64,000 nt of DNA, taken from the NCBI GenBank assembly GCA_964639965.1, contig CAZXGI010000004.1:3888-67887 (forward strand). The letters run 5' to 3'. Below are positions 1,627 to 28,821 of the stretch, piece after piece. The stretch comes from an uncultured Rhodospirillaceae bacterium (GTDB taxonomy: Bacteria; Pseudomonadota; Alphaproteobacteria; Rhodospirillales; UBA2165). The notes under the pieces were generated by a model. The model searched no databases. It had not been told where the DNA came from and worked only from the letters and a program-made list of their open reading frames with translations. The position numbers and the translations under genes were made by a program. The first letter of the stretch is position 1, and each line of letters starts with the position of its first letter.

Positions 1627-2128
1627 TTTGCCAATTTCCTTTCGTTAGTCCGACAGAACTATCTAGTGCCAAAATTTTACGAAACCCGACTCCGGCCCAG
1701 GCGTTTCTATTATAACTGGATAGCCAAAGCATTGCCCAGTTTTCTAAAAGACGAGATCTTTATAGAATTCAGACAACTAAATTTAAACTATAGCTATCAT
1801 CAGGCGCAACAAATCTATGGCTCTGGTGGTGATTTAACCTATCTTTTTCACCATATTTTTGCTCATTATTGGTATTAGCTGCTTCGAGAACGATACCAGG
1901 CCTTAAGTATTGTGGGCGTGTGCTTGATAGCTGTAATGGCTCAACCATTTCGTTCACCTCTCTGGATTACTAGATATTTGGTCAAATTTTATTATTAACA
2001 CTACATATAGTGCCATCAATTTATTAAAAAAATGTAAAATTTAGCTATAAACGGCAAAATTTGCCTAAATCTGAACAAAATGAGAGATATTTCTATAAAA
2101 AAAACACTCTATATCATATAACTCCGGA

Positions 2129-2599
2129 TTATTTCTTCGACTCCAAAAAGTTAACCATTTTAATAACGTCCGTAGCTTCCATTCGACATAATGGACCGGA
2201 GCTATATGAAGACATTATAACCTTGCCTTGCCCATCGAGAATAAATTCGGAAGGCTGAATCAACCCTCTTCGGTCTTCCCACCAAGAGCCCATAAGGTCC
2301 CGGTGTGTTTCTCCAGCTCCATATCCTATAGGAAAAGATAACTCATCAGCCACCTCTTGAGCCTTATCTTCCGGATCAACACTGGCAGCAAATATCTTTA
2401 TGTTTCGGTCATTAAACTCAACAATTTCACCTTCAAAACCGACTAACTGTCGGCGACAATAAGGTCACCAATGTCCACGGTAAAAAAGCACCACGTTATA
2501 ATTTCCATCCATATCAGCGGGTAGCGTTATTTTGCCGCCACCGACCAAATCTATAGACATTATTGGGAATTGGGATCCGGTACCTAACTTCTCATTCAT
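2129..2599 (-). CDS. AhpC/TSA (peroxiredoxin/redoxin)-like thiol oxidoreductase with in-frame TGA at codon 45; candidate selenoprotein (UxxC), otherwise a pseudogene
   Basis: One frame is open from ATG 2599 to the stop at 2129 apart from TGA at 2465-2467. Translation: MNEKLGTGSQFPIMSIDLVGGGKITLPADMDGNYNVVLFYRGHW[TGA]PYCRRQLVGFEGEIVEFNDRNIKIFAASVDPEDKAQEVADELSFPIGYG... The TGA replaces the first Cys of the thioredoxin-fold WCPYC motif. The ORF track shows only the last 74 aa (2129..2353). Confidence 0.6.
2430..2464 (-). promoter_or_regulatory. SECIS-like stem-loop immediately 3' of the in-frame UGA
   Basis: mRNA reads UGA-CCUU-AUUGUCG-CCGAC-AGUUA-GUCGG-UUUUG-AAGG. Outer 4-bp stem, internal loop, inner 5-bp stem (plus a G-U pair), 5-nt apical loop containing GU. 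The apical loop begins 16 nt after the UGA. Confidence 0.4.
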
Positions 2600-2988
2600 T
2601 TTATATTCCTAGACAACAAATTAAACAAAACCACAAATAGACTTTAGATAGTGATAATATTACACAGAATCCTATATGGCTCAAACGGGAAAGTAGCCCC
2701 ACCAATTAACAATATCTCACGACTTTTTGTTTTCATTAAACCAATATTCTTTCAGCCATTTTAATAAATTACCTCTTTAAGATAACTATAATAAAAAATC
2801 AATTCTCCATCACTTTTGTAGCTTCCAGAAATACATGCTTACAATGTTTCCATGATATAATAATTATGACAAGCGTAGGCAGGTTCTTATACAATTGACA
2901 GTAAACTGATGTCGCTAGCAGAAAATTGTACAGAATGAAATTGACACAAGGTTAATCCATAAAAACAAAGTGTGATTTGGAGGCTTAA

Positions 2989-3612
2989 ATGCAATATTTT
3001 ACTTGGGGAATTAATAAGCCGGGGACTAACGAAAAACGAACGTCCCTGATAAAAAAACATTGGGGTTATATTGCAAATTATGAGAAAAAACTGATCGCAC
3101 GGGGCCCTGTGATGGATCCTGATGACCTTAGCGTTGTTATCGGATCCATTCATATAGTGGAACTTGCAAACCTTACCGAAGCAGAAGCTTTTTCCTATGA
3201 GGAACCCTTCGCCAAGGCTGGTCTTTTTAAATCTGTTTTCATAAGCCAGTTCAAACTAAAGCTCAAAAGAACTCAATTCGATTTTATCAGCAATCCTGAT
3301 TTTTTGCGCTTTTTTATATACTGTCCAGTAATGATGCACTCTAAAAAAAAGACCTCCGAATTAACGAGGGCTCATGAAGCTTATTGTAAAAAATTCGACA
3401 AACATTTCATCTGCCGCGGTTCGCTTATATCCAACAACAGCATCTGGCAAGGCAATATATATTTTGTTGAGTTTGCCAATAGAATTGATGTTGATAACTT
3501 TCTTAAAAATGATCCTTTTACAAAGTCGAGCGTTTACGATAAGACAGAAACATTTCGCTGGACAATGGGGGGGCCAGAGAACCTCAACGCCGCCGGGACT
3601 TTAGGCGAATAA
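2989..3612 (+). CDS. YciI-like (YCII-related) protein, apparently a tandem two-domain form
   Basis: 207-aa ORF with GGAGG Shine-Dalgarno. Two repeats of the YCII-like pattern (..RGPVMDPDD..GSIHIVE.. and ..CRGSLISNN..GNIYFVEF..). Confidence 0.65.
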   Translation: MQYFTWGINKPGTNEKRTSLIKKHWGYIANYEKKLIARGPVMDPDDLSVVIGSIHIVELANLTEAEAFSYEEPFAKAGLFKSVFISQFKLKLKRTQFDFISNPDFLRFFIYCPVMMHSKKKTSELTRAHEAYCKKFDKHFICRGSLISNNSIWQGNIYFVEFANRIDVDNFLKNDPFTKSSVYDKTETFRWTMGGPENLNAAGTLGE

Positions 3613-8454: not shown

Positions 8455-9198
8455 ATGGACATTTTTTCCAGCGTTTTGAGTTTCAATTTATTACTTGCGG
8501 CCTTTGCAGTATTTCCGAGTGGTATAATTCAAGGTTATGCCGGGTTTGGAGGAGTTTTGGTAGCTGTCCCATTCCTAGCTATCTTATTTGACCCAGTCAC
8601 GGGTTTTGCAATTATATTATTCGTAGTTTTATTTGGTCAGGGTTCTCATTTTTTAAAAGCAATAAGGAATGCAGATTGGAAAGAGGTTGGCCCGGTTGCC
8701 GGTGCCAGTGCAATTACGATGACAATCGGAATATTTTTCTTAGTGAAAACCGATCCAATATTTATACGCAAGTGTATGGGCATAATAATTCTCCTCATAA
8801 CCTTACTGATGGCGTCCGATTGGAATTACTCGGGGAAAAGAAGTTTGATAAGCAAGGTGTTTACGGGGGGGGTCTCTGGCACAATTACAGGTGGATTTGG
8901 AGTACCTGGGTTCCCGCTTCAAGTAATGTATTTTCATACCTCACTCTCAACTATTGACACAAAACGTTCTAATGTTTTAGCGGCGTTAGCTTGTGGTTTA
9001 GCTGTTGCAATTACTGGTCTCGCAATCCAAAATATTTATACCCAAGAAATGTTAATACGCGCAGTAGTAATTGCCCCAACATTTATCGTGGGAGCAAAAT
9101 TAGGAGAAATGATCTTTAAAGTGGCACCTACCGATTGGTTCAAGAGAATAACTTATCTGATTCTATTGGCCACCGCTATTATGTTGATTTTTTTTTAA
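8455..9198 (+). CDS. TauE/SafE family sulfite/organosulfonate exporter-like membrane protein
   Basis: 247-aa, roughly 8-TM protein with the glycine-rich repeats typical of TauE/SafE (DUF81). Confidence 0.75.
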   Translation: MDIFSSVLSFNLLLAAFAVFPSGIIQGYAGFGGVLVAVPFLAILFDPVTGFAIILFVVLFGQGSHFLKAIRNADWKEVGPVAGASAITMTIGIFFLVKTDPIFIRKCMGIIILLITLLMASDWNYSGKRSLISKVFTGGVSGTITGGFGVPGFPLQVMYFHTSLSTIDTKRSNVLAALACGLAVAITGLAIQNIYTQEMLIRAVVIAPTFIVGAKLGEMIFKVAPTDWFKRITYLILLATAIMLIFF

Positions 9199-11069: not shown

Positions 11070-11681
11070 TCAATCTCGAAGACCTCCCAAATTTTCAACA
11101 AATTCAATAATTTCCTGTAATCCAATATTTTCTTTAAGGTTTGAAAAATAGTAGGGCTTATCACCCCTCATCTGCCTCGCATCATGATCCATTACGTCAA
11201 GATCAGCTCCAACCAGCGGGGCAAGATCTATTTTATTAATAACTAACAAATCTGATCTTGTTATGCCGGGACCTCCTTTTCTCGGAATTTTATCACCGGC
11301 AGAGACGTCAATTACATAGATAGTAATATCAGCCAGCTCGGGCGAAAACGTAGCTGCTAGATTATCACCTCCGCTTTCTATAAATATAACATCAAGCCCT
11401 AAAAATTTTTCATTAAGTTGGGATACCGCCGATAAATTCATCGAAGCATCTTCACGGATTGCTGTATGCGGACATCCTCCTGTTTCAACTCCCAAAATTC
11501 TATCCGCTTCTAGTGCTCCTGATCTGGTTAGAAATTCCGCATCCTCTCGTGTGTATATATCGTTGGTAATCGCAGCAATATTAAATTCGTTACGCATCGA
11601 TTTACAAAGTCGTTCCAATAAGGCCGTCTTGCCAGTTCCAACCGGGCCGCCTATTCCAACTCTTAATGGATTTAAACTCAT
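11070..11681 (-). CDS. ureG: urease accessory GTPase UreG
   Basis: 203 aa; P-loop GPVGTGKT; strongly UreG-like throughout. Confidence 0.95.
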
Positions 11682-12388
11682 GATCTAAACAGCCGTGTAT
11701 ATTGCGTTTCATGATTCATCGAAGCTATATCAATAATAGGAGCAGCTGTACCGATTTCCTCAAAATTATCATGCAGCGCAGCCTCAATTGACGAATTTAT
11801 ATTCGATTTTATGGATTCAATACAACGTTGACCCGCCACTTGGCCAAGTGGGATCAAGCGAACCCCTGCCGATACCAGATTCGATGCAAATGAATGGAAA
11901 TAAGCTAATAATGCTGAACGAAGGGGCACATTTGCAATTGCTAATGCAATTGCTACTGCTATGGCGTAAGTTGGTTTTCTTTCTATCTTGCGCATAATAT
12001 CCATTAAATGCTGAATTTCCTTCAAATTTTTGACTTCCATAACTGTATCAAGAAAAGCAACCCCCTGTGATTCACTTTCCAGAGCCATTTCATTAGTAGC
12101 CCGCATAATATCTCCTCGTTCGACAACCCAACAAAGTCTATCAAAATTTTGATCCTTAACAGCTTGCCAAGCAATACGAAAAAACACCCCGTCAATACGA
12201 CCTGCCCCCTGAGACAGTGCTGCCTTAATCCAGACGCGCAATTGGGACTCATTTTGGATAAGCTTATCTTCAACGGCAAATTCAATACCGTGAGAATACA
12301 CATAACTCCCCACAGGAAAGCTGGGTGACAAGAAAGTCATTAAATCCAGAAATGCAGCGTCAGAACAATTATTTGTGGCCATGGACAT
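11678..12388 (-). CDS. ureF: urease accessory protein UreF
   Basis: UreF-like sequence positioned between ureE and ureG. The ORF is open to 12445, but the ATG at 12388 (MSMATNN..) gives a typical length and only a short overlap with ureE. Confidence 0.85.
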
Positions 12389-12845
12389 GCCCCCCAGAAT
12401 GTCCAGAAACGTCGTAGGCCCCCTTCTCAGGAGAAAATACTGCAACGTTTGGCGTTGTCACTGCACCTAAACCTTCGACCATATTTTTCAAAACGTGATC
12501 AAAAATAATTCGAACCGCGCCACATTCCAGAACTTGCAAAGGTATATGGCGATTCCCTATGTGCCAGGCAATTTTTGCGGTCTCGGACGCCGTTCTGCAC
12601 TTGATATCAAGAACATCTTCCTTTGCAGCCTTAACTTCAATCATACCACCTTTCTCTAAGATTAAGGCATCACCCTCGTCCATTTGAACGGCCTTCTCGA
12701 GATCTAGCATGAACGCTTCTCCACTATCATCGCGCATTTTTATTCGCCGACGATATCGATCTTCATAAGATAATGTCACAGTGCCTACAATATCATCAAC
12801 ATTGCCACTATTTGATGGAAGTATATTTGTTGCACGTCTCATCAA
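12369..12845 (-). CDS. ureE: urease accessory metallochaperone UreE
   Basis: 158 aa; His-rich C-terminus [12 protein letters not shown]; ATGA overlap with the ureC stop. Confidence 0.9.
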
Positions 12846-14554
12846 AACAAAAAGTACCTTTGTGCCATGGCGAGTTCATCAGCAGGCTCACAAATCAATA
12901 GCTCCCCGTCAGCTCTCACCTCATAGGTTTCAGGATCAACTTCAATTTTTGGCTGATAATCATTTAACTTCATATCTTTTTTCTTAACGGATCGAGTCCC
13001 AAAAACTGGTATCAATTCTCTTGAGAGGCCCAATGTACTGCTGATATTAGAATGAGCTGCAGCCTCAGATGTAAAAGTTATGGAACTTTCAATTAACGAT
13101 CTGCCAAATGCTCCAAACATAGGACGGTAATGCACAGGTTGAGGTGTTGGAATAGAGGCATTTGGATCCCCCATAGCTGCTGCAGCAATCGTGCCTGCTT
13201 TAAGAATAATATCGGGTTTAACGCCAAAAAACATAGGTTTCCATAAAACAAGATCGGCTAATTTACCAACTTCGATAGAACCTACATGTTCAGAAATTCC
13301 ATGTGAGATAGCTGGATTTATCGTATATTTTGCAATATATCTCTTCACTCGAACATTATCGTTCTCACCAGTCTCTCCGACCAAATGGCCGCGTTGTTTC
13401 TTCATCTTATCAGCCGTTTGCCATGTGCGAATTATTACTTCACCAACTCGCCCCATCGCCTGACTGTCTGATGCTATCATGGAAAATGCCCCAAGATCGT
13501 GAAGAATATCTTCAGCCGCTATAGTCTCTCGACGAATTCGGCTTTCCGCAAAGGCAATATCTTCAGGGATCCGAGAGTCCAAATGATGACAAACCATCAA
13601 CATGTCAAGATGTTCATCTACTGTGTTAACGGTGAATGGTCGCGTTGGATTAGTTGACGACGGCAACACATTCGCTTCACCGCATACTTTAATTATGTCA
13701 GGCGCATGGCCTCCACCTGCCCCTTCAGTATGGAAGGCATGTATAGTGCGATGCCTAAATGCTTCTATGGTATTCTCAACAAAACCAGCCTCATTCAAAG
13801 TGTCCGTGTGAATCGCAACCTGAACATCCATTTCATCTGCGACCCCGAGGCATGTATCGATGGCTGATGGAGTCGTGCCCCAATCCTCATGGAGTTTGAG
13901 ACCACAAACTCCGGCTTCGACTTGAGCCTTTAATTCATCAGGTTGTGATGAGTTACCCTTACCAAAAAAACCAAGGTTCATGGGTAACCCTTCTGCAGCT
14001 TGAAGCATACGGCTTATATGCCAGGCTCCAGGTGTACACGTTGTCGCATTCGTACCTTCCGCTGGCCCTGTTCCCCCACCAAGCATGGTTGTAATTCCTG
14101 AGTACAAAGCATCATCAACCTGCTGTGGACTAATCCAATGAATGTGAGCATCAATACCACCAGCCGTTAAAATGCGTCCTTCACCAGCTATAGCTTCGGT
14201 GCCTGGGCCAATTATGATATCAATATTTGATTGGATATCCGGATTACCCGCCTTGCCAATAGCATGGATACGCCCTTCCTTCAGTCCGACATCAGCTTTA
14301 AGAATACCCGAATGATCAACAATTAGTGCATTTGTTATGACGGTATCAACGGCTCCATTTGCTCGACTTATTTGAGATTGCCCCATACCATCACGGATGA
14401 CTTTTCCACCGCCAAATTTAACCTCTTCACCATAAAACGTCTTATCATCCTCGACTTCGATAAAAAGATCAGTATCAGCAAGACGAATTTTATCCCCAGT
14501 GGTGGGCCCATACATCGCAGCATATTCTGAGCGTTCTATCTCATAACCCATCAA
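12842..14554 (-). CDS. ureC: urease alpha subunit UreC
   Basis: 570 aa with canonical urease alpha sequence ([30 protein letters not shown]). Confidence 0.97.
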
Positions 14555-14856
14555 ACCTTGCCCTGTATTTTTGCATTAAAGCCAAACACAACCTGATCAC
14601 CTTCATATAAAACCAACTCGACCTCACGCACCTGACCAGGCTCAAAGCGAACCGCCGTACCAGCTGGGATATTGAGGCGGTAACCTCTGGTATTTTCGCG
14701 ATCAAATTCCAGGGCGCCATTTGATTCATAAAAATGAAAATGAGACCCCACTTGTATAGGACGATCGCCAGTATTAGTGATTTCTAGCTTCTGAGTAACT
14801 CGCCCTTCATTAAGGATAATTACCCCATCTGTTGTAACAATTTCTCCTGGGATCAT
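14551..14856 (-). CDS. ureB: urease beta subunit UreB
   Basis: 101 aa starting MIPGEI..., typical of UreB. Confidence 0.95.
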
Positions 14857-14865
14857 TATATTACC

Positions 14866-15168
14866 TCACCTTATTGGTTCATGTACGGTGACGAGTTTGG
14901 TTCCATCAGGAAATGTTGCTTCGACTTGGATATCCCCAATCATTTCCGGAATGCCATCCATTACTTGATCGCGTTGCAAAACATTTGCACCATCCGCCAT
15001 CAAATCAGCAACACGACGTCCATCTCTCGCACCTTCAACAACGAAGTCACTAATCAATGCGATGGCCTCGGGATAATTCAACTTAACACCGCGAGATAGT
15101 CTTTTTCGTGCAACCTCAGCAGCCATGGCAATTAAAAGTTTATCCTTTTCTCTGGGAGAAAGATTCAT
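14866..15168 (-). CDS. ureA: urease gamma subunit UreA
   Basis: 100 aa starting [13 protein letters not shown]..., typical of UreA. Confidence 0.95.
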
Positions 15169-15248
15169 ATTTGACCCTCCATAGAAACCTAAAATAGATT
15201 AAAGAAATTTATCCTGTAATAAATTAATATTCCACAATTTATTGTAAT

Positions 15249-16124
15249 TTACATATTCCATAATCGTGGCATTCTCGCTGGCAAGCCAATTAACTTATTA
15301 CGGAAATTCAGCCAAAAATCTCCAAAAGCATTCCGCAACTCCAATGTATCATTTCCAAGCCATCTCATAACTAAAATCCCGTTTACATGAGTTACTCCAG
15401 ACTTGACAGCCTTTTGGGAATTTCCAATAACATCTCGGGCAATAGTAAGCGCCTCCTCGGCATCCGGACCTACATAAACTGCTGTTGCCATCGCTACAGC
15501 ACCGTCAAAACAAGCCGGATCGCTTATTACCGAGCCTATATTTTTTTCGAGGTGCAACACATCGGACCAAATTAAACGCCCTTTATGCTCAATTTCCCAG
15601 ACATCACGTATCAACCCGTTCTCAAAATTCTCACCAAAACCCAATCGCCCAAATACAATTATCTCGCCTGCAAATAGACGGCCACCATCAATAACGTTGA
15701 TATTTTTTTTTCGATTCAAACGTGATCCTTCAAATAAAATTGTTTCCTGAGGAAGAAACTCTAGCCAACCACCAGTCTCTGATAAAAGGTTTATATTTAT
15801 CTCGGTATTTTCTCCATTTGAACGATAAATTTTCTCTGCTGCCTGGGCCATCACAAGGGCTCTCGCGTTCTCACCTATATTAACTTCTATCGAAATGACA
15901 TCACCACCGACAAGTCCACCCGATGTTGTCACGGTAACCGCATTCATAATTTCATCTTTCCGGGTAATGGGGAAAAGAAATCTTAAGGGATCGGAATGGT
16001 ATAAATCAATTATACGAGCATCTCCACCGGGAGCACACTCAATACTAAGCTCCGCTTTACCTTCAACTTTAATCTTCCCTGACGTCTTATTTAAATTTAG
16101 AGAGGGTGAGATAGCAACAGACAT
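15249..16124 (-). CDS. ureD: urease accessory protein UreD
   Basis: UreD-like sequence at the head of the operon. The ORF is open to 16274 (341 aa), but the ATG at 16124 (MSVAISPS..) has an AGGA-containing Shine-Dalgarno region and gives a typical length of about 290 aa. Confidence 0.8.
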   Translation of the reverse strand: MSVAISPSLNLNKTSGKIKVEGKAELSIECAPGGDARIIDLYHSDPLRFLFPITRKDEIMNAVTVTTSGGLVGGDVISIEVNIGENARALVMAQAAEKIYRSNGENTEININLLSETGGWLEFLPQETILFEGSRLNRKKNINVIDGGRLFAGEIIVFGRLGFGENFENGLIRDVWEIEHKGRLIWSDVLHLEKNIGSVISDPACFDGAVAMATAVYVGPDAEEALTIARDVIGNSQKAVKSGVTHVNGILVMRWLGNDTLELRNAFGDFWLNFRNKLIGLPARMPRLWNM

Positions 16125-16272
16125 TTCTCTTATCCTAGAAACAGATCTTAACGCAAAGATAGCATCGTTCCAAAATAATACAGGGTAAACATCAGACCAT
16201 TTTTTTGCAAACTCGATTTTTAGTCGACCTTTCGGAAAGGAAATATTATTATAAAACGGGAAGGCAGTTGAC

Positions 16273-16719
16273 ATGACTATCTTAGCTGGTGCACTGGAAA
16301 TAGACTGGAAGTGCCGTCATACTTGGCGACGCTCGTCTGTTAATACGCTTTGGTGTCTGCTCGGATGCTCAATCGGTGATTTCGGTACGATAGCTTTTTT
16401 TCAATTGAACTCTATCGCATGGCCAACAATAGCGATTATGTTATTAGCCATTTTGATGGGTTTGTTAACATCAATTTTATTAGAAACAATCATTCTAATT
16501 CGTCAAATGTCGATTCACCTCGCATTAAAAACGGCTTTAGGTATGTCTCTCATCTCCATGATCTCTATGGAGGTGGCTATGAATGTATTAGACGTTATTG
16601 TTACCGGAGGGGCAATTCTTACATGGACGGTCATTCCATTTATGCTGATTGTGGGGTTCATCACGCCACTTCCCTACAATTATTGGCGATTGAAAGCATT
16701 AGGTAAAGCCTGTCATTAA
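16273..16719 (+). CDS. DUF4396-like small integral membrane protein
   Basis: 148 aa, 4 TM, with an LGCSIGDFG motif resembling DUF4396; GGGAAGG Shine-Dalgarno. Confidence 0.55.
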   Translation: MTILAGALEIDWKCRHTWRRSSVNTLWCLLGCSIGDFGTIAFFQLNSIAWPTIAIMLLAILMGLLTSILLETIILIRQMSIHLALKTALGMSLISMISMEVAMNVLDVIVTGGAILTWTVIPFMLIVGFITPLPYNYWRLKALGKACH

Positions 16720-16778: not shown

Positions 16779-18155
16779 TTAATGGCTTTTTATAAAATTG
16801 ACAAACCGTTCAGCCCACTTATTGGTTGTCAGACTTCTTTGATGAGTAAAACAAGCCAGCATATTCTTAATTATTAAGCCATCATGTTCGCCATCAATAC
16901 CGTGTCCTCGGACTACTCTATAGGCATAACGAAGGTTTTTTGATAAACCCTCAAGCGAAGCATAGTGAAATTCATGGGCGGGAATTTTATCGGTTATAGA
17001 CGGTGGCTGCGCTTCCGGCCACAAAGATTGTTTCGTTTCATTTAATCGAACATAACCACGTCCTATCGGCCTTTCATGCATTATTCCAGCCGCCGGAATG
17101 ACCCCCACCATATCAAACTTTTTTCCTTGCCAGCTCAAACTATTTGCCAAATATAATAAACCGCCGCATTCTGCGTAACAGGGCATTCCGCCTTCAATCA
17201 TATTATATATATCGGATTTAAGAGACAAATTTTCGGATAAAGCCTGCATATGCACTTCGGGAAATCCACCACCAATAAAAAGACCATCAGCCGTAGGTAA
17301 ATGACGGTCGTGTAATGCATCGAAAGAAACTAAATTGGCACCCGCCTGATTCAAAGCCTCCAAGTCATCATGGTAATAAAATCCAAAAGCTGCATCTTGA
17401 GCAATTGCAATCGTGATGGGTTTATTGGTCGTCGCTTTATTTCTAAGGATTTTTGGTTTCAGTCTAGGGACGGCTTTAGTAGCCATTTTCTCCACTGTGT
17501 CGATGTCAACTTCGGACTCGATCACCCGCGCTGTTCTCAAAACGTTTGAATCAGCTGAGGGCACCTCATTTGCTGGAACTAACCCTAGATGCCTTTCGAC
17601 AATCTTGAGTTCAGGACGCCTTCCAATAGCTCCGATAACCGTAAGGTCAGTATAACGCTCAATTGCAGCGCGCATCTTTGTTTCGTGGCGTTGACCGCCA
17701 ACTTTATTAAGTATAACCCCTGCAATTTTTATATCCTCTTCGAATGACTCATAGCCTTTAAGGAGTGGCGCGACACCGCGGGTCATACCATACGTGTCAA
17801 CAACCAAAATAATCGGAATACCAAGCAAGCGGGCTAAAGCTGAGTTGCTGTCAGACCCCTCAGGGTCCAACCCATCGAACAAGCCTTTATTTCCTTCAAT
17901 AAAAGTCAGATCCGCGCCCTTGCTAAATTTAGAAAAGAAATCAACAATCTCTTGATGGCTTTGGGTAAAAAAATCGAGATTACGGCAAGGAGCCTGAGCT
18001 GCGCGCCCGAGCCACATTGGATCGATATAATCGGGACCTTTTTTAAAAGGTTGTATCCTTAAGCCACGTTGCTGAAAAACGGCACAAAGCCCCATTGTAA
18101 CGGTCGTCTTGCCAGATGATTTTAGGGCAGCGGATATAATCAAACTCCCTGGCAT
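16779..18155 (-). CDS. dsrN: DsrN, cobyrinic acid a,c-diamide synthase-like siroheme amidase
   Basis: 458 aa; CobB/CbiA fold with N-terminal nucleotide loop (SGKTTVT) and C-terminal glutamine amidotransferase Cys (YAECGG); last gene of the dsr cluster. Confidence 0.85.
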   Translation of the reverse strand: MPGSLIISAALKSSGKTTVTMGLCAVFQQRGLRIQPFKKGPDYIDPMWLGRAAQAPCRNLDFFTQSHQEIVDFFSKFSKGADLTFIEGNKGLFDGLDPEGSDSNSALARLLGIPIILVVDTYGMTRGVAPLLKGYESFEEDIKIAGVILNKVGGQRHETKMRAAIERYTDLTVIGAIGRRPELKIVERHLGLVPANEVPSADSNVLRTARVIESEVDIDTVEKMATKAVPRLKPKILRNKATTNKPITIAIAQDAAFGFYYHDDLEALNQAGANLVSFDALHDRHLPTADGLFIGGGFPEVHMQALSENLSLKSDIYNMIEGGMPCYAECGGLLYLANSLSWQGKKFDMVGVIPAAGIMHERPIGRGYVRLNETKQSLWPEAQPPSITDKIPAHEFHYASLEGLSKNLRYAYRVVRGHGIDGEHDGLIIKNMLACFTHQRSLTTNKWAERFVNFIKSH

Positions 18156-18186
18156 CGTTTAGATAATCTCCTATCAAAGCATAGAA

Positions 18187-19404
18187 CTAGTTAGCGTTAT
18201 TAAATTTCGGATCGGTCACACTGTTTTCTAGAGATGTTGGTAAAAACCGTAACGCCTTTAAACCAATCATGATTATCAATACAGCAACCGAAATCCCGCC
18301 GATACCAAGTAAAAACTCGGGTAAAGTTGGAATATAACTCCGAACCACGCCATCAAAGAACGAACTTTTAACATCCATACCGGGAAACAAAACTAAAGGA
18401 AATGCTTGTCCTCCAATAATAATCACGTAAAGCTGAGAGAAACCTCCTATTATTACACAGCTAGCCGAAAGATAAATATTAGATCTTAATTTATTGAATC
18501 TCGAATAGAACAAAAGTAATAATGGAATTAGTGTTCCAATTAAAATCTGACCAATCCAGAAAAGAAAAGTATAAATTCCACCTTCTAACAGAACAAAACG
18601 TTCCACATCATGGTGCTCGGTAGCATACAAATTCGTCAAATGTTGTATCAACACAAAATATAAAACCACACCAACAAAAATACCTAATAACTTTCCGAGT
18701 CGTAAAACGATAAAATCTCCAAGAGGTCGATTGTCAGCTGCTGAAATAGTAGCCAAAATTAAAATAAACACCGCCAAACCAAGAGCAAATGACATGGCAA
18801 TAAACAGCGGAGCAAATACAGCTGCGTCATAACTTTGCCGAGCCACCAGAAAACCAAAAATAGAGCCTGTGCCAGTAGTAAGCACAAGACGCCAAACCAA
18901 CGCGATTATGCCGACAGAGGGTACAAAGACATTCATCCGCTTTTCAAGCATCATCCACAGATAAATACCGACGATGGCAATAAAGCCTATATAAAGAAAA
19001 ATATTCCAGGCAAAAATGGATTTAAAATTATAGGTTGTCATAGCAACTATAAGCCGGTCAGGTCTCCCCAAGTCTAGAACAAGGACGAGCAGACCACCCA
19101 CTAATAAAGCGATGGCAAGCAACCCAGAAAGCCTTGCGAGTGGCTTATATGTCGCTTTCCCAAAAACGGAGCTAATAGATGCAACGTTTAGTGCTCCTGA
19201 AGCAGCGACAATGAGAAAGATAGCAAATACATGCGGCACTCCCCAGACAACATTGTTATTCATGCCCGTTACATGATGTCCGTTTACCTCCATGTAATAA
19301 CCTGACAATGCTCCAGCTAACGTTACAAGGCCAACAAAAACAAATGATAAGTAGAATTTTCGTTCATCCCCCTGCAACTGCGAATAAGTGAAATTTCTTT
19401 GCAT
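18187..19404 (-). CDS. dsrP: DsrP, NrfD/PsrC-like polytopic membrane subunit
   Basis: 405 aa, roughly 10 TM, positioned after dsrO. Confidence 0.85.
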   Translation of the reverse strand: MQRNFTYSQLQGDERKFYLSFVFVGLVTLAGALSGYYMEVNGHHVTGMNNNVVWGVPHVFAIFLIVAASGALNVASISSVFGKATYKPLARLSGLLAIALLVGGLLVLVLDLGRPDRLIVAMTTYNFKSIFAWNIFLYIGFIAIVGIYLWMMLEKRMNVFVPSVGIIALVWRLVLTTGTGSIFGFLVARQSYDAAVFAPLFIAMSFALGLAVFILILATISAADNRPLGDFIVLRLGKLLGIFVGVVLYFVLIQHLTNLYATEHHDVERFVLLEGGIYTFLFWIGQILIGTLIPLLLLFYSRFNKLRSNIYLSASCVIIGGFSQLYVIIIGGQAFPLVLFPGMDVKSSFFDGVVRSYIPTLPEFLLGIGGISVAVLIIMIGLKALRFLPTSLENSVTDPKFNNAN

Positions 19405-19406
19405 AT

Positions 19407-20162
19407 CTAAATTCCCTGATACCGAACACCGAGATCCAGACCCAGATCGGCACGCACTTGTTGGGAGGCGTACTTTTCTAAACGTATAGAAATCTCGCTA
19501 TTCGGATCGTTTAGATCCCCAAACACCATTGCCTTACCCCCTGTCTCGGAGCATGCCTCAACACATGCGGGCGTACCTCCTTTATCAATTCTGTGCACAC
19601 AAAGCGTACAACTTTCAACAGTTCCTTTACCTCTTGGCACATCTGTTTTCTGATCTGTTAATTCTTCATGTACAAAGGATCGAGCTTGATAAGGACAAGC
19701 CACCATGCAGTAACGACAGCCGATACATGTGTGTTTGTCTACTAGCACTATGCCGTCAGCTCGCTTAAATGAGGCGCCCGTTGGACACACGTCAACACAA
19801 GGCGGGTGCGCACAATGCTGGCACATCATAGGCAATGAAATTTTATGGTTGGTTTTAGGGTTTCGAACCTCAAGTTTTCTAATCCACTGCGGATCCGTTT
19901 CTGGATGACCTGAGGAACCAATCCCATTTTCCTTAAAACATGCCGATACACATTCATTACAATCGACAGAACATTTTTGTGTGTCAATCAACATACCCCA
20001 GCGCACCTTCGGTGTAACGCCTTTAGTTTTCTCCGCTGAACTCGAGAAGCTAAACAAAGTTACTCCCGGAGCTATAGCTAGGCTAGCTGCTCCAGCGATA
20101 CCCGCGAGAAATTTACGGCGCGCTAATTCTGTATTTTCTTTATTTTTCATATCCTCAATCAT
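19407..20162 (-). CDS. dsrO: DsrO, periplasmic 4Fe-4S ferredoxin-like subunit
   Basis: 251 aa; Tat signal RRKFLAGIAG; multiple Cys clusters (CIGCRYCMVACP, CVHRIDKGGTPACVEAC). Confidence 0.88.
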   Translation of the reverse strand: MIEDMKNKENTELARRKFLAGIAGAASLAIAPGVTLFSFSSSAEKTKGVTPKVRWGMLIDTQKCSVDCNECVSACFKENGIGSSGHPETDPQWIRKLEVRNPKTNHKISLPMMCQHCAHPPCVDVCPTGASFKRADGIVLVDKHTCIGCRYCMVACPYQARSFVHEELTDQKTDVPRGKGTVESCTLCVHRIDKGGTPACVEACSETGGKAMVFGDLNDPNSEISIRLEKYASQQVRADLGLDLGVRYQGI

Positions 20163-20611
20163 CGTTTCAAATACTCCTGTAGGCGAAAAGATAAATCCGA
20201 TATAGTGTTCGATTCCAGTTCAACTATTGACGGTGGCTTAGAAGCGTGACATTGGAAACAGTCGACACTGACAGCAGCATAGTCATGACACGTGCGACAG
20301 AAGTGTTTTGGATTCTTATAAGAAACTGGCTTTTGATCTTCGCCATAAACCACATGACAGGCAATACATGCTTTTAAACTATGCTTCTGTGTGCGGATAC
20401 CGTCATGAACCGTTCTATCCCTTTTATGTATCATTAAATCCATATGATGGCGACGCATTAATTCTGCATGACCTTTCTCGGCGGGTTCAAGTGCTTTCGG
20501 TATAACAGGAGAAAGGCTCCGTTCTCCCCCATAAACCGGATTATAGGAAGCTAAATTCAATGCTATCCCACAGATAAATATATATAAGTAAATCTGTCCA
20601 CGTCGCCACAT
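20159..20611 (-). CDS. dsrJ: DsrJ, triheme cytochrome c
   Basis: 150 aa; signal/TM region followed by three CxxCH motifs (CIACH, CRTCH, CFQCH). Confidence 0.88.
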   Translation of the reverse strand: MWRRGQIYLYIFICGIALNLASYNPVYGGERSLSPVIPKALEPAEKGHAELMRRHHMDLMIHKRDRTVHDGIRTQKHSLKACIACHVVYGEDQKPVSYKNPKHFCRTCHDYAAVSVDCFQCHASKPPSIVELESNTISDLSFRLQEYLKR

Positions 20612-20627
20612 AACTTGTTATCCGGTA

Positions 20628-22571
20628 TTATTCGCCAAGCCCCATTTGTATATAACCAGAAGGACAAACATCAGCACAAATTTTACAGCCAATGCATTTT
20701 GTATAATCGGTATCCACATAACGGCCCAAAGCAGCCTGATCTTTCTTTACTTTAAAAACAGCAACTTGTGGACAATAAATAACACAGTTATTGCACTCGA
20801 AACACATTCCACAGCTCATGCAACGGTTACCTTCAGCCTGAGCCTCCTCCTCCGTGAGATTATGGATTCGTTCCTCAAAATTACCAAGAACTTGATCCTT
20901 ACTAATGTGAGTTTCTGGACGCCGTTTTCGAGCGTCGTATTCAAAATGCCCCAAAAACATTTCGTCGTGAGGGATTACCTGTGTTCCCGAGCGATCTTCA
21001 TAATTATGAACAGCAAAGTTATCTTCTGAAGTGCCGCGGGTTGGAGTATGATCAAAATTTTCGGGTTTTAACTCACGTTGTGCTAATTCGTTTAATAGAT
21101 TGAAGTGAAACACATCAACTTTTGGTCTTTTGTCAACTTGAATGCCGCCTAGAAAATTATTAATACTATCAGCTGCTACACGGCCTTGCCCGATTGCTGT
21201 AGTAAGAAGATGCGGTCTAATAATATCACCACCCGCAAAATGGGCTTCTTTATCTGTAACATTAAAGATTTTGTTAGTAGAAATAAAACCATTTCCATTA
21301 TCCAACTCTTCTAGTCCCACCATATCGCCCATTTGACCAATCGCCGACACAATAACATCGCACTCAATTTCAAATTCTGTGCCTTGACGAGGTACTGGTT
21401 TATTGCCATCCATGTCACATTCACACATACGAAGCGCTATCCCCCGGCCATTTTGATCTTGAATAACTTCAAGGGGCATAACTCCTCCCTTTAAATCTAC
21501 CCCTTCACGCTCTGCATCTTCGCGTTCCCGTTCTGCTGCGGTCATTTCCTCGATAGGAAATAGTGATGTCAAAACTGCATCGACACCTTCACGTTTCATC
21601 GTGCCTGCGATATCGTGTGCTGTGTGACCAAGCACGACATTCTCAGGCCGATCTTTTTCATGACTATTCAAAATATGTCCAATTCTTCTGGCTACCGAGG
21701 CAACGTCAATCGACGTGTCACCTCCGCCAACGACAACAACTTTTTTCGACGCAAATTGGAGGCGACCCTTATTGAATGCTTCCAGAAAGGCAACTCCACT
21801 TATACAATTTTCTGCATCTCCTCCTGGCACTGGCAATGGGCGCCCGGTCTGTGCTCCAATCGCCCAGAATATTGCATCAAACTCTTCTTCTATTTCTTTG
21901 GTAGAGATATCTGTCCCAACTTTTGTCTCCATCCGCGTTTCAATACCGATATCCAAAATTCGCTGAACCTCTGCATCGACCATATCACGTGGAGTTCTAT
22001 AACTTGGAATTCCATAGCGCATCATTCCTCCAAGCTTTGCATGTGCATCAAATATGGTAACGCCATGCCCCTCTCTTCTTAACTGAAACGCAGCAGATAA
22101 ACCCGCTGGCCCGCCGCCAATGACAGCAACTTTCTTTCCAGTTTCACGCTTTGGACCTTCCAATTTTAATTCATTTTCAATAGCCCAATCGCCGACATAT
22201 TGCTCAACCGCATTAATGCCAACGTAGTCATCCACTTCATTTCGATTACAACCATCCTCACACGGTGCCGGACAAACACGTCCCATTGTTGCAGGAAATG
22301 GATTGGCTTCTGCCATGCGATTAAATGCATATTCTTGCCACGACATACCTTCAACTGGTGGTTTATCAATACCGCGCGCTATGGAAAGCCAGCCACGTAT
22401 ATCATGACCAGAGGGACAACTACCCTGACAAGGAGGGGTTCGATGAACGTAAGTGGGACATTGATGTGAATGTCCTGCTGTGTGAATTTTTTCTAACCAT
22501 TCAGGTGGCGATTGATTACCATCTTCATAACGCCGCCAAGTAAGAGCAGTATCTTCATTCAAATCAACCAT
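20628..22571 (-). CDS. dsrL: DsrL, NAD(P)H:acceptor oxidoreductase (GltD-like flavoprotein with ferredoxin domain)
   Basis: Dinucleotide-binding VAVIGGGPAGLSAA; C-terminal CMSCGMCFECNNCVIYCP and CIGCKICADVCP. The ORF is open to 22622, but ATG 22571 follows AAGGGG and overlaps the dsrK stop (ATGGTTGA), which suggests translational coupling. Confidence 0.88.
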   Translation of the reverse strand: MVDLNEDTALTWRRYEDGNQSPPEWLEKIHTAGHSHQCPTYVHRTPPCQGSCPSGHDIRGWLSIARGIDKPPVEGMSWQEYAFNRMAEANPFPATMGRVCPAPCEDGCNRNEVDDYVGINAVEQYVGDWAIENELKLEGPKRETGKKVAVIGGGPAGLSAAFQLRREGHGVTIFDAHAKLGGMMRYGIPSYRTPRDMVDAEVQRILDIGIETRMETKVGTDISTKEIEEEFDAIFWAIGAQTGRPLPVPGGDAENCISGVAFLEAFNKGRLQFASKKVVVVGGGDTSIDVASVARRIGHILNSHEKDRPENVVLGHTAHDIAGTMKREGVDAVLTSLFPIEEMTAAEREREDAEREGVDLKGGVMPLEVIQDQNGRGIALRMCECDMDGNKPVPRQGTEFEIECDVIVSAIGQMGDMVGLEELDNGNGFISTNKIFNVTDKEAHFAGGDIIRPHLLTTAIGQGRVAADSINNFLGGIQVDKRPKVDVFHFNLLNELAQRELKPENFDHTPTRGTSEDNFAVHNYEDRSGTQVIPHDEMFLGHFEYDARKRRPETHISKDQVLGNFEERIHNLTEEEAQAEGNRCMSCGMCFECNNCVIYCPQVAVFKVKKDQAALGRYVDTDYTKCIGCKICADVCPSGYIQMGLGE

Positions 22572-24087
22572 CGGCCGCCCCTTCATTTTCTGGCCCTTTC
22601 TGTCCATCAAGTACAATGGCATTACTCACAAGTTCATGGACACTGATAATATCCGTCATTGCGAAACCATACATCGGCATCACTTTAGAAAACTGAGTTT
22701 TACAAATTGCACAAATAGCAGCCATATGTGTCACGCCATGATCTTTAACCACTTTCTCATATGCACTCATTCGTGGACTTGCACCTTTTGCTCTCAACTC
22801 CATCAAATCATCCGTTAATAAACCTCCACCGCCACCGCAACAGAAAGTATTTTCTTTGATGGTTTCCTCTGCCATATCGAAAAAATTATTACAGGTAGCT
22901 TTAATAATTTCCCGGGGTATCGTGAATTGTCCACCGGGAGTATTTCCCATTCGAGATCCTCGCGAAACATTGCACGAATCATGATAGGTAAGTGTCATAT
23001 GGTCATTAGCTGATTTATCCAATGTCAAAGCCCCATCTCTCATCAAGTTATATGTAAATTCGCATATATGTTGAGGTATGGGATAATTCTGATCTAGAAA
23101 ATCAAATGGTCCAACCAACGTATCCCAAAAGTTGTAGGCAACACGCCAGGCGTGACCACATTCTCCAACGACAATCCGTTTAACCCCCAACTCTAAGGCG
23201 GCATCTCTTATGCGTTCAGAAATTTTTCCCATTTGATCATGCGAGCCAATAAACATAGCAAAATTAGCCGCCTCGGAGGCCTTGGAACTCAATGTCCAAC
23301 TCACGTTCGACTGATGAAATACCTTTGCGTAACCGAGCAAACCATCAACATGGGGTTCAGCAAAAAAATCTGCACTTGGCGTAATTAACAAAATATCAGA
23401 ACCCTTTTGATCCAACGGCAGGCGAACAGCTACACCGGTATCATCTTCCAGATCTTCTTCCAAATCCTCAAGTGTTGCCCGTAATGCTTTTTCAGGTAGC
23501 CCTAGATTATTACCAATATCGTGCACTTTACCGATTATTTCATTACTATATTTCTGACCCATCCCGATGTGGTCCATAATCTCGCGAGCTGCCATAGAAA
23601 ATTCTGCAGTATCAATACCATAGGGACAATAAACCGAACATCGACGACATTGTGAACACTGATGATAATAACTATACCACTCATCGAGAACGTCCCGGGT
23701 TAAATCTTTCGCCCCAACCAACCAAGGAAACCATCTTCCTACCCAAGTAAAATAGCGGCGATAGACTTTTCGCATTAAATCTTGACGCGCAACCGGCATA
23801 TTTTTTGGGTCACCCGTTCCCAGAAAATAATGACATTTATCCGTACAGGCACCACACTTTACGCAAGCATCCATATAAACGCTCAGAGCCCCCTGCCCAT
23901 CCAATATTTCGCGAAATTTAGCAATGGCTTTATCGTGCCAATCGTCAACTAACTCACCGGGAAATCCCAACGCTGACTGATGGTCTGGAGCTGCTGAAAA
24001 CGGCTTACAATGTGCCATTACTCCTGGATCAATTTTCGGAATCTCAGTCGGTTCTTTTAGTTTAGGAACAGTAAAATCATTCATCAT
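22564..24087 (-). CDS. dsrK: DsrK, HdrD-like catalytic FeS subunit
   Basis: 507 aa; CVKCGACTDKC and CSQCRRCSVYCP clusters; CCG-domain motif FCCGGGGG. Confidence 0.92.
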   Translation of the reverse strand: MMNDFTVPKLKEPTEIPKIDPGVMAHCKPFSAAPDHQSALGFPGELVDDWHDKAIAKFREILDGQGALSVYMDACVKCGACTDKCHYFLGTGDPKNMPVARQDLMRKVYRRYFTWVGRWFPWLVGAKDLTRDVLDEWYSYYHQCSQCRRCSVYCPYGIDTAEFSMAAREIMDHIGMGQKYSNEIIGKVHDIGNNLGLPEKALRATLEDLEEDLEDDTGVAVRLPLDQKGSDILLITPSADFFAEPHVDGLLGYAKVFHQSNVSWTLSSKASEAANFAMFIGSHDQMGKISERIRDAALELGVKRIVVGECGHAWRVAYNFWDTLVGPFDFLDQNYPIPQHICEFTYNLMRDGALTLDKSANDHMTLTYHDSCNVSRGSRMGNTPGGQFTIPREIIKATCNNFFDMAEETIKENTFCCGGGGGLLTDDLMELRAKGASPRMSAYEKVVKDHGVTHMAAICAICKTQFSKVMPMYGFAMTDIISVHELVSNAIVLDGQKGPENEGAADG

Positions 24088-24813
24088 TTACTCTCCCGTC
24101 TCAACCGGTTTTGATACACCTGGAATGTAGCGCACTTCCCGGGGATTATCGACTTGATTTCGCGTGGGGCTAAAAAACACACCAGGAGCATGTAACAATT
24201 TGGAAAACGGAAAAATTATCATTAAAAGAGCAACCAAACCCAGATGGATAAGAACAGCAGGATCTTGGGGCAACGGTTGTAAATCAAAATACATAAGCCC
24301 AAGCATAAAAGCCTTAACGGCCACAATGTCTGTATGTTCAACGTATTTCATGAACAGACCACTGATAGCGATTGCTAATAACATAATGATCATCAGATGA
24401 TCAGATGGACCGGTAATGTAGCGGACACGCTCAACAAATACACGACGCACACCCAAGGCAAACAAACCTATAACAAAGGCAAAAGCAGCATAAACACCAA
24501 AAGGCTGAATGACGGTGATCCAACCCCAAACTGGATCAACAAAGTAACGCAAATGACGCAACAGAATAAAAACCATGGCAACATGAAATACCCAACCAAA
24601 TATCCATGTCCATTTATTGGCACGAAATAAACTTTGAAAAAGAATGACCTCGCGCAACATCCGCAAAACAACACCTTTTCGGGTCGTTGGCGCAGGTGTT
24701 GTAGGAATTTTCAATGGTACGACTGTTGTAGCATACTTTTTAATCTTAAAAGCAAGACCGCCTATAAGAACTAGAGTAGCTGCATAAAACAAAATAGCAT
24801 ATGCTATGTTCAC
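24088..24813 (-). CDS. dsrM: DsrM, NarI/HdrE-like membrane b-type cytochrome
   Basis: 241 aa, 5-6 TM, located directly upstream of dsrK with no gap. Confidence 0.88.
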   Translation of the reverse strand: MNIAYAILFYAATLVLIGGLAFKIKKYATTVVPLKIPTTPAPTTRKGVVLRMLREVILFQSLFRANKWTWIFGWVFHVAMVFILLRHLRYFVDPVWGWITVIQPFGVYAAFAFVIGLFALGVRRVFVERVRYITGPSDHLMIIMLLAIAISGLFMKYVEHTDIVAVKAFMLGLMYFDLQPLPQDPAVLIHLGLVALLMIIFPFSKLLHAPGVFFSPTRNQVDNPREVRYIPGVSKPVETGE

Positions 24814-24849
24814 GTCTGGCCTCTATAAAAATTCAAAGTTTCTAATCGG

Positions 24850-25182
24850 CTATACGCAGCCAGTGGGTTTAGGAAGGCCAGCAATTTTACAAGCCTGCTT
24901 AGCAGGGCCATATGGAAATAACTCATAAAGATACTTGCTATTGCCTTTATCAGCACCAAGAGACTTTTTAATTGCCTTTGTCAAAACACGAACCGCAGGG
25001 GCTATTTGGTATTCCTCATAGTAATCCCGAAGAAAATTTACCACTTCCCAATGATCATCACTCATATCGATATTTTCCGTTTCAGCAATTGCATCGGCTA
25101 ATTCCTCAGACCAGTTAGAAATGTCAGTAATATAACCCTCTTCATCTGCGCCAATAGTTTGATCATTTACCGAATATTCCAT
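24850..25182 (-). CDS. dsrC: DsrC sulfur-carrier protein
   Basis: 110 aa; C-terminal arm ..QACKIAGLPKPTGCV carries both conserved Cys. Confidence 0.93.
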   Translation of the reverse strand: MEYSVNDQTIGADEEGYITDISNWSEELADAIAETENIDMSDDHWEVVNFLRDYYEEYQIAPAVRVLTKAIKKSLGADKGNSKYLYELFPYGPAKQACKIAGLPKPTGCV

Positions 25183-25236
25183 TTGATTTTCTCCTTTTAA
25201 AATTTTTTCAATTTTCTTTTATTAATTTAAAGAAAC

Positions 25237-25545
25237 TTAAAGCCATGACTGAACAGAAGAGCATTCCTCAACCAAGTCAACAAACCCCGCATAGTCAATA
25301 AGCTGCAATTCATCAACAAGAGGTTTTTCACTTAAGCCTCTAGCTGCAAGATCCGGGGCTAGAGCGAAAATTTTTATCTCAGCATTCCGACCTACAATTT
25401 CATCACTCACCGTTGTATCAAGTAACGCACCATAGACCCCATCTTCAATCAACAGAATAGTAGAACCAGATTTTGCACGTCGCAAACAATCCGACAAAGA
25501 ATTGGTTTCAAACGGTGACTTATTTACTGTATGCAATAACGCCAC
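25237..25545 (-). CDS. dsrH: DsrH
   Basis: 102 aa; MALLHTVNKSP.. and a conserved Cys (SDCLRR); third gene of the dsrEFH set. Confidence 0.88.
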   Translation of the reverse strand: MALLHTVNKSPFETNSLSDCLRRAKSGSTILLIEDGVYGALLDTTVSDEIVGRNAEIKIFALAPDLAARGLSEKPLVDELQLIDYAGFVDLVEECSSVQSWL

Positions 25546-25554
25546 AATAAACTC

Positions 25555-25947
25555 CTAAAAGGAAACAATAACATCTTGCTGATCCATTAAATCAGCAACT
25601 TGTTGTGAGTCGAGTATCTCCACCGGTATTACAAGGTCATCTTCATCAAGACCCCTCGCTTTTAGTGACTCACGCTCAACATAAACCTTTTCAACTTCAT
25701 AGCCTTCCAATGCCCTATAAGTCGGGGAAAAATTTTTCATATTTATACCCGAAGTTTCCTGATCTTTCTTGATTTGGAATACGCCATCATCGATAAAAAC
25801 CATACTTACATCTTGATCGAATGCTGCCGTTATAAGTACGACTTCAAGTCCTTCTAGCGCGTAAACCGTCCCATAGGGCCCCTTGCGGTTAACATACATA
25901 AACTTCTTAACAGGGCCATCAAATTCATCATCTTCAAAATCCGCCAT
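25555..25947 (-). CDS. dsrF: DsrF
   Basis: 130-aa DsrE/F-fold protein between dsrE and dsrH. Confidence 0.85.
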   Translation of the reverse strand: MADFEDDEFDGPVKKFMYVNRKGPYGTVYALEGLEVVLITAAFDQDVSMVFIDDGVFQIKKDQETSGINMKNFSPTYRALEGYEVEKVYVERESLKARGLDEDDLVIPVEILDSQQVADLMDQQDVIVSF

Positions 25948-25957
25948 CGGTTATTTC

Positions 25958-26317: not shown

Positions 26318-26331
26318 ATCATGTTTCCTTG

Positions 26332-27414: not shown

Positions 27415-27426
27415 ATCCTGTCTCTC

Positions 27427-28710: not shown

Positions 28711-28779
28711 AAAAAAAGCCTCCGCACTAGATTTTTCAAAAGCTAAGTCCATGCAAAACAATAATCCACAGTAGACTGC

Positions 28780-28821
28780 CATTGATTATATATTACACTA
28801 TGATGTATGATATAATCAATG
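28780..28821. promoter_or_regulatory. perfect 12-bp inverted repeat (CATTGATTATAT-N18-ATATAATCAATG) overlapping a promoter-like TTGATT-N18-TAATAT upstream of dsrA; candidate operator
   Basis: Read directly from the sequence: arms at 28780-28791 and 28810-28821, 70-111 nt upstream of the preferred dsrA start. Confidence 0.35.

Follow-up and report, generated by a model that had tools for sequence, protein, structure and literature searches.

Here the window denotes the whole 64-kb stretch of DNA that was analysed, part of the chromosome of an uncultured marine alphaproteobacterium with a guanine-plus-cytosine (GC) content of ~40%. Its minus strand carries, at 2129..2599, a gene of the peroxiredoxin (Prx) fold with one in-frame TGA codon that very probably encodes selenocysteine (Sec, U). 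The frame runs from ATG 2599-2597 to TAA 2131-2129, 156 sense codons with a single internal stop; translation thus bears out the original prediction for this locus, made from the sequence alone, which had the frame open from the ATG at 2599 and broken only by the TGA at 2465-2467. This sole in-frame TGA is codon 45, and the translation reads ...NYNVVLFYRGHW*PYCRRQLVGFEG..., the context of the TGA being FYRGHW-TGA-PYCRRQLVGFEG, or HW[TGA]PYCRRQL around the motif itself. Besides codon 45, we found no stop or frameshift in the window gene. A mechanical list of open reading frames (ORFs) breaks the gene into pieces of 44 aa (2465..2599) and 74 aa (2129..2353). The features of the locus, including a putative selenocysteine insertion sequence (SECIS) of the bacterial type (bSECIS), are as follows, with the evidence for each in parentheses.

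2129..2599, minus strand: complete coding sequence of the predicted selenoprotein, 156 residues including Sec45, then TAA (translation, Pfam, alignment to 156-aa homologues, and the ratio of nonsynonymous to synonymous divergence, dN/dS)
2607..2610, minus strand: AGGA, a Shine-Dalgarno-like motif 7 nt 5′ of ATG 2599-2597 (sequence read directly; function putative)
2465..2467, minus strand: TGA, codon 45, predicted to encode Sec and to open a U-P-Y-C redox motif (family conservation)
2456..2458, minus strand: TGT, codon of Cys48, the presumed resolving Cys, which takes the peroxidatic Cys position in Prx alignments (invariance in the family; alignments to PDB structures)
2438..2454, minus strand: core bacterial SECIS hairpin, with 5′ arm 2454-2449 GCCGAC, loop 2448-2444 AGUUA and 3′ arm 2443-2438 GUCGGU (fold, RNAalifold, covariation, bSECIS criteria)
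2429..2465, minus strand: extended stem-loop, with an outer ACCUU/AAGGU stem around the core, in the window only (fold; not conserved in homologues)

Conservation of the internal TGA and of the hairpin behind it

Scanning species-representative genomes with an alignment of the family returned 313 relatives, and all locus counts given below refer to the best 80 of these 313. Together with the window and four metagenome contigs, the 80 genomes form a set of 85 sequences, and TGA stands at codon 45 in 85 out of 85. The 80 best loci belong to Alphaproteobacteria (many of them named Rhodospirillales or Rhodospirillaceae), to Burkholderiales and other Betaproteobacteria, to a few Gammaproteobacteria, and to one metagenome-assembled genome (MAG) of the Gemmatimonadaceae.

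Protein searches return three types of relative. Full-length proteins of 156 aa show a "W" at the TGA column; as the DNA of one of them (P0001) shows, this residue is a TGA translated under code 4 (the Mycoplasma-type code). In a second type the column holds Cys (P0025, P0033, and P0043, with TGT or TGC as the DNA codon) or, in one protein each, Arg or Gln. The third type comprises hundreds of proteins of 105-107 aa that start just past the TGA, some of them on megabase-size contigs. These short entries, like the 44- and 74-aa pieces of the ORF list, are what the original prediction expected of gene callers, which it held to split or shorten such genes. It also asked whether homologues align across the TGA, and they do so on both flanks: the column is TGA or Cys in all but the Arg and Gln proteins, with TGA in all 85 DNA sequences and Cys in P0025, P0033, and P0043.

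The window gene recurs without a single difference over its 471 nt, and so with the same TGA, in five assemblies made independently from different samples (JGI 3300009104, 3300008629, and 3300009339; ENA ERZ23498581; Logan SRR8062338). Because these assemblies share the same gene and the same TGA, the wrong base call at 2465-2467 that the original prediction had allowed for is excluded. TGA is the stop codon of 10 of the 47 long ORFs in the window, which indicates that the standard genetic code is in use.

Substitution patterns point to translation on both sides of the TGA. Between the window gene and that of locus L006 (87% protein identity), 52 out of 72 synonymous and 13 out of 261 nonsynonymous sites differ 3′ of the TGA (dN/dS ~0.02), and 17.5 out of 27.7 synonymous and 9.5 out of 104 nonsynonymous sites differ 5′ of it (dN/dS ~0.07). 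Against L001, L007, and L008 the synonymous sites are saturated, with a downstream nonsynonymous divergence of 0.07-0.20. The region 3′ of the UGA is therefore under purifying selection and is translated in the window's lineage; where the original prediction had considered further disabling lesions in orthologues, we find this selection instead. Codons 46-56, which lie over the hairpin, depart from the general pattern. Of their 7.7 synonymous sites, only one to two are changed relative to L001 and L006, the two closest relatives, and three to five relative to L007 and L008, compared with ~75% elsewhere. The scarcity of synonymous change over the hairpin indicates that, for the closest relatives, the RNA element imposes an added constraint of its own.

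A 40-nt segment that starts with the UGA has a folding energy of -13.5 kcal/mol (z = -3.48; none of 200 shuffles folds as well) and forms an ACCUU/AAGGU outer stem, a GCCGAC/GUCGGU inner stem, and the loop AGUUA. The 17-nt core (a 6-bp stem with the loop AGUUR in the family) begins 11 nt past the UGA and has on its own a free energy of -8.1 kcal/mol (z = -4.54). Its loop begins 16 nt past the UGA, the distance originally predicted. For comparative folding and pair counts we used 71 distinct homologous 48-mers, for which RNAalifold predicts the same 6-bp helix and nothing else. Across the 71 sequences 96.9% of cells are paired, compared with 5-55% when the 3′ partner is slid along the alignment. 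Compensatory changes occur at two pairs, 18-32 (CG/GC/UA) and 21-29 (GU/AU/GC/UA/UG), and the covariation score of 0.173 (shuffles, 0.094 ± 0.010) is reached in none of 500 shuffles. The loop AGUU, with Gln encoded as CAG and Leu as UUR, is invariant in 71 out of 71 sequences, and this holds even where the GC content of the genome is 60-71%. A 66-nt fold gave another hairpin, which takes in the UGA; it was rejected, since the comparative fold supports the 6-bp hairpin only.

The published bSECIS model calls for a loop of 3-9 nt, a stem of 4-16 bp, a G within the first two loop positions, a distance of 16-37 nt from UGA to loop, and a minimum free energy of at most -7.5 kcal/mol (PMC13188914). 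The hairpin agrees with the model on every count (a 5-nt loop, 6 bp, G followed by U at loop position 2, 16 nt, and -8.1 kcal/mol for the core or -13.5 for the 40 nt), and its stem covaries, so that the resemblance to bacterial SECIS elements noted at the outset holds. Of the hairpin as first drawn, the inner stem and the AGUUA loop are conserved, but the outer CCUU/AAGG stem is not: L001, itself 87% identical, already has mismatches in it, and in other homologues it is mismatched or absent. The protein sequence does not by itself dictate the RNA structure, since in L194, a divergent Cys homologue, similar residues are encoded through CAA and CUA and there is no hairpin (-0.1 kcal/mol).

Three further loci look like recent departures from Sec, two of them Sec-to-Cys conversions and one a decaying copy. 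The hairpin is intact in L193 (TGT; gene at 301-777); in L192 (TGC; 301-780) the stem is kept and the invariant loop U is lost; and in L191 (CGA; 1187-1867) the hairpin is intact and the C-terminus is frameshifted. A scan for promoters and terminators over window 1700-3000 returned nothing informative.

Family assignment, fold and active site

With U replaced by C, the Pfam model AhpC-TSA (PF00578) matches residues 8-128 (E 9e-18, 64.8 bits) and the Redoxin model residues 8-131, both spanning the TGA. Every NCBIfam model scores below its cut-off; the weak matches are to peroxiredoxins, to ResA (20.3 bits, cut-off 170) and StoA (22.1 bits, cut-off 210), and to the SelL-related redox protein NF040769, whose cut-off of 120 lies far above the 15.9 bits scored here.

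Alignment to solved structures places U45 and C48 on the CxxC of thioredoxin-like and ResA proteins, with the Pro region of ResA aligned to the QPSEF segment. In alignments to peroxiredoxins (6q5v and 3zvj), R41 falls at the Pro, U45 at the Thr of TxxC, and C48 at the peroxidatic Cys, and the canonical Prx motif PxxxTxxC is absent. The original prediction had placed the TGA at the first Cys of a CxxC motif in the AhpC/TSA/redoxin family; this is correct for CxxC proteins of the thioredoxin and ResA type, but true peroxiredoxins have the Thr of TxxC at that position. R111 and R139, both invariant in the family, are candidate counterparts of the conserved active-site Arg with which peroxiredoxins activate the peroxide. 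The N-terminus, MNEKLGTGSQFPIMSIDLVGGG, is not hydrophobic and contains no signal or anchor.

The fold was examined on an AlphaFold (AF2) model (mean predicted local distance difference test score, pLDDT, 92.4) of P0025, a natural Cys homologue with 58% identity to the window protein. Residue 45 of this model is at the N-terminus of helix 46-57. All of the top 50 Foldseek matches to it are peroxiredoxins, with template modeling (TM) scores of 0.79-0.84, the best being 3hjp, 6q5v, and 3a2v (TM 0.82-0.84).

Proteins of this kind are known from ocean metagenomes, as the original prediction had stated. The Sargasso Sea study reported a "Prx-like protein" with a thioredoxin-like UXXC in place of the TXXU of Sec-containing Prx (PMC1088965), and the Global Ocean Sampling (GOS) selenoproteome lists 225 selenoproteins under "Prx-like 1" (pfam00578, UxxC; Zhang and Gladyshev 2008; PMC2398784). 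In the part of the GOS supplement searched, the heading "#Prx-like 1" covers sequences with FYRGHWUPYCRRQLVGF..., and one of these, JCVI_READ_1093012132367, is 58% identical to the window protein over 143 residues (E 3e-65). The same part of the supplement does not contain the sequence strings of the window's own clade (relatives 67-94% identical). With PF00578, the U-P-Y-C motif, and this similarity to a published member, the window gene belongs to the predicted Prx-like 1 selenoprotein family: the family exists in the GOS and Sargasso surveys, the active-site block is the same, and identity reaches 58%.

Selenocysteine machinery and the rival explanations

In many lineages the genes for Sec synthesis and insertion adjoin the Prx-like gene. 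Within the fetched flanks (10 kb), sel genes are present at 38 of the 80 loci (tRNA-Sec at 35, selA at 31, selB at 33, and selD at eight), and at 19 out of the 34 loci whose flanks reach 9 kb or more on each side. At about 20 loci tRNA-Sec and the Prx-like gene are 27-300 nt apart, arranged either as selA-selB-selC followed by the Prx-like gene or in convergent layout. Examples among L009-L083 are the Prx-like genes of L053 (9822-10471), L077 (9878-10471), and L009 (10001-10676). Earlier work, from 2006, had named fdhA as the sole selenoprotein gene and sel-operon neighbour in Alpha- and Betaproteobacteria (PMC1794560); an FdhF-like gene is nearby at one of the 80 loci. We found no paper describing a linkage between the Prx-like gene and the sel operon in the literature searched, and this tight linkage to selA-selB-selC in many Alpha- and Betaproteobacteria is the most interesting by-product of the analysis. 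At L021 (13263-15494), SelD is joined to an N-terminal pyridine nucleotide-disulfide oxidoreductase domain in a protein of 743 aa, an Ndh-SelD fusion that adjoins tRNA-Sec, 4 kb from the Prx-like gene; such a fusion was already noted in the GOS paper (PMC2398784).

We consider it highly probable that window 2599..2129 (minus strand) holds a single functional gene, which encodes a peroxiredoxin-fold Prx-like 1 selenoprotein, its TGA being read as Sec. The original prediction had likewise preferred a Sec gene to a pseudogene, and TGA in 85 out of 85 sequences, a covarying bSECIS, purifying selection, and sel genes beside the gene in many other genomes all speak for that choice. Translation would start at ATG 2599, and at the UGA of codon 45 the 17-nt hairpin GCCGAC-AGUUA-GUCGGU would recruit SelB with Sec-tRNA(Sec), Sec being inserted in place of termination. 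In the Prx-like thioredoxin fold, U45-P-Y-C48 would sit at the N-terminus of the first long helix, where Sec45 may attack as the nucleophile and Cys48 resolve the product to a selenenylsulfide, then to be reduced by a cellular thiol reductant. The most likely chemistry is that of a redox couple of Sec and Cys, cytoplasmic and built on a Prx scaffold; its substrate could be a disulfide or sulfenate, or a peroxide.

Several observations weigh against this interpretation. Within the 64 kb of the window there is no tRNA gene and no homologue of SelA, SelB, or SelD (ARAGORN; tblastn with Escherichia coli queries). By the same methods, no selA, selB, selD, or tRNA-Sec is found in the 10 kb beyond the window's left end, nor are there sel genes or tRNA-Sec in the ±10-kb flanks of the four closest genomes (L005-L008). 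For the protein at the window's right end, a look-up returned no record. A scan for other genes with in-frame TGA in the window, L001, and L006-L008 gave no convincing second selenoprotein. The hairpin has a U-U mismatch at pair 21-29 in 13 out of 71 sequences, and no Rfam family covers it at gathering or permissive thresholds. A 2026 review lists the family, under the name "Prx-like thiol:disulfide oxidoreductase" (PF00578, UxxC/UxxU), as a high-confidence prediction that is not experimentally verified (PMC13188914). The main caveat is that the searches for the Sec machinery of the window's clade did not locate it.

Candidates for that machinery come from composition. The low-GC (39-41%) marine contigs L097, L164, and L112 carry selA (partial in L112), selB, and tRNA-Sec, and L125 carries tRNA-Sec. 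Their tetranucleotide correlation with the window is r = 0.95-0.965 (0.955-0.965 for L097, L164, and L112), compared with 0.964-0.979 for known members of the clade and 0.58-0.90 for other low-GC loci. We regard these four contigs as candidates, their link to the clade being a compositional one. Large protein searches for the clade's SelA returned P0166, a low-GC protein gene on Tara contigs whose tetranucleotide profile resembles that of the window; close relatives of this SelA are lacking, as is any tie to the MAG records of the clade. P0263 was considered too and proved unrelated. A pattern scan of metagenome contigs for tRNA-Sec added three low-GC contigs, none from the window's samples.

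On L097, a stretch at 9015-9086, ~90 nt 3′ of tRNA-Sec (8829-8924), has the translation ...LYCMEADDVIRLIN..., similar to the C-terminal end of the Prx-like protein (11 out of 24 residues identical, E 0.08). It stands where other lineages have the Prx-like gene and may be a relic or a chance match. In the window, the sole other long in-frame TGA junction, at 14866-14868 on the minus strand (100 aa upstream and 104 aa downstream), was rejected as a recoding site: it is the stop of ureA, followed by the start of ureB (MIPGE).

The rival explanations differ in what they make of the TGA. If a nonsense change from TGC or TGT had inactivated a Cys-type gene and left its 3′ part to decay, both the division by gene callers into 44-aa and 74- or 105-aa pieces and the lack of visible Sec machinery nearby would follow. 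The same TGA is shared, however, by all 85 sequences across three proteobacterial classes, and downstream nonsynonymous divergence is 5-7% where synonymous divergence is saturated, with no more stops or frameshifts, so that a pseudogene is very improbable. The existence of two small genes, a 44-aa peptide and an AhpC-like fragment of 74-105 aa with no recoding, would match the style of public annotation, with its hundreds of 105-107-aa "peroxiredoxin family protein" entries. It is scarcely credible given that both halves fall within the Pfam domain and the predicted Prx fold, that the downstream fragment alone would be without the active-site motif, that the first start past the TGA (GTG 2353) is 37 codons downstream and within the domain, and that purifying selection acts on the 44 upstream codons as well. 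If the codon at 2465-2467 were really TGC, TGT, or TGG, an error of one base in sequencing or assembly would explain the TGA; with TGA in all relatives and in five identical independent assemblies, the chance of this is negligible.

The UGA might also be decoded other than as Sec, by near-cognate read-through with Trp or Cys or, after a recent loss of selABCD, as a low-yield Cys or Trp protein with the hairpin as a fossil. Such an account draws on the unverified Sec machinery of the clade and on SECIS fossils that outlast a codon change, as in L193 (TGT) and L191 (CGA) with their intact hairpins. We nevertheless think it unlikely: TGA and hairpin are kept in four species-level relatives that are otherwise synonymously saturated, synonymous change is suppressed over the hairpin for L001 and L006, lineages that gave up Sec switched to TGT or TGC and did not keep TGA, and TGA is an efficient stop for other genes of the window. 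Recoding of the TGA as Sec would in turn imply a selenium requirement and a working Sec-decoding system for this low-GC marine alphaproteobacterium. The practical worth of the finding lies in annotation: the window gene and hundreds of its relatives stand in databases as fragments of 44 aa and 74-107 aa or as code-4 Trp translations, so that selenoproteome counts for proteobacterial MAGs from sea and soil are too low.

As selA, selB, and tRNA-Sec are linked to the gene at 38 of the 80 loci, often with less than 300 nt to selC, and no fdhA is near in 79 of the 80, we tentatively raise the possibility that Prx-like 1 accompanies the Sec trait of aerobic Alpha- and Betaproteobacteria as its "companion" selenoprotein, co-transferred with the machinery or serving selenium or Sec metabolism, and is not a generic antioxidant. 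If this were true, the gene would have left the vicinity of the sel operon in the window's clade.

Genomic surroundings and comparison with known systems

The neighbours of the selenoprotein gene are genes of the acyl-CoA dehydrogenase, YCII, IspA, and SbmA/BacA families. Directly 3′ of it is a small ORF of 59-62 aa (window 1769-1957, minus strand; L001 10476-10655), which is called in every assembly of the clade and has no Pfam match. Elsewhere the window carries a 2-oxoacid:ferredoxin oxidoreductase, housekeeping genes, and a dsr cluster (16779-28782, minus strand) in the order dsrAB-E...MK-L-OP-N, with the gene content of the reverse (sulfur-oxidizing) type. This cluster, whose genes are assigned from Pfam domains and gene order alone, would make the organism a sulfur oxidizer. 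The features, including a urease cluster, are listed below.

27427-28782 and 26332-27414, minus strand: NIR_SIR pair DsrA/DsrB
25555-25947, minus strand: DsrE
24088-24813, minus strand: DsrM-like
22564-24087, minus strand: DsrK-like
20628-22622, minus strand: DsrL-like
19407-20162, minus strand: DsrO-like
18187-19404, minus strand: DsrP/NrfD
16779-18155, minus strand: DsrN/CobB-like
11070-16274, minus strand: urease cluster ureD, ureABC, ureE, ureF, ureG

Two Rfam matches to small RNA (sRNA) models lie antisense within coding sequences. "5_ureB_sRNA" matches 14110-14399 on the plus strand (91.5 bits), within the gene for the urease alpha subunit, and probably reflects conservation of the coding sequence, not an sRNA. 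"Rickettsia sRNA47" matches 35858-36149 on the minus strand (70.7 bits), within an S41 peptidase (CtpA-like) gene at 35150-36472, and is likely an artefact of the Rfam model with the same cause.

Compared with the fdhF/fdnG-type SECIS of E. coli and the bSECISearch consensus, the window hairpin has the same place directly 3′ of the UGA within the ORF, a small apical loop with G then U at loop positions 2-3, and the 16-nt spacing. It differs from the fdhF/fdnG type in its short stem (6 bp) without a conserved lower stem or bulged U, and its sequence is unrelated to fdhF. The protein shares with the canonical peroxiredoxins (BCP/PrxQ, Prx6, and Prx1/AhpC) the overall fold and a Cys, Cys48, at their peroxidatic position. 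Where they have PxxxTxxC, however, it has Arg at the Pro and Sec at the Thr, which puts the Sec three residues N-terminal to the catalytic position; Sec-containing Prx are TxxU proteins, whereas the window protein is UxxC. With the thioredoxin-like proteins ResA, TlpA, and StoA (W-C-x-x-C) it shares the placement of U45 and C48 on their two Cys and of a cis-Pro-type QPSEF on their Pro, but these proteins are membrane-anchored or secreted, and the window protein has no hydrophobic N-terminus. With Prx-like 1, as represented in the searched part of the GOS supplement, it has in common PF00578, UxxC, a marine origin, and the blocks FYRGHWUPYCRRQL, WWEDRR, IQPSEF, and SSYSxGP. Public records of the window's clade are still annotated as truncated fragments. 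The gene is a member of this predicted family, already known from ocean metagenomes, and adds no new mechanism or family.

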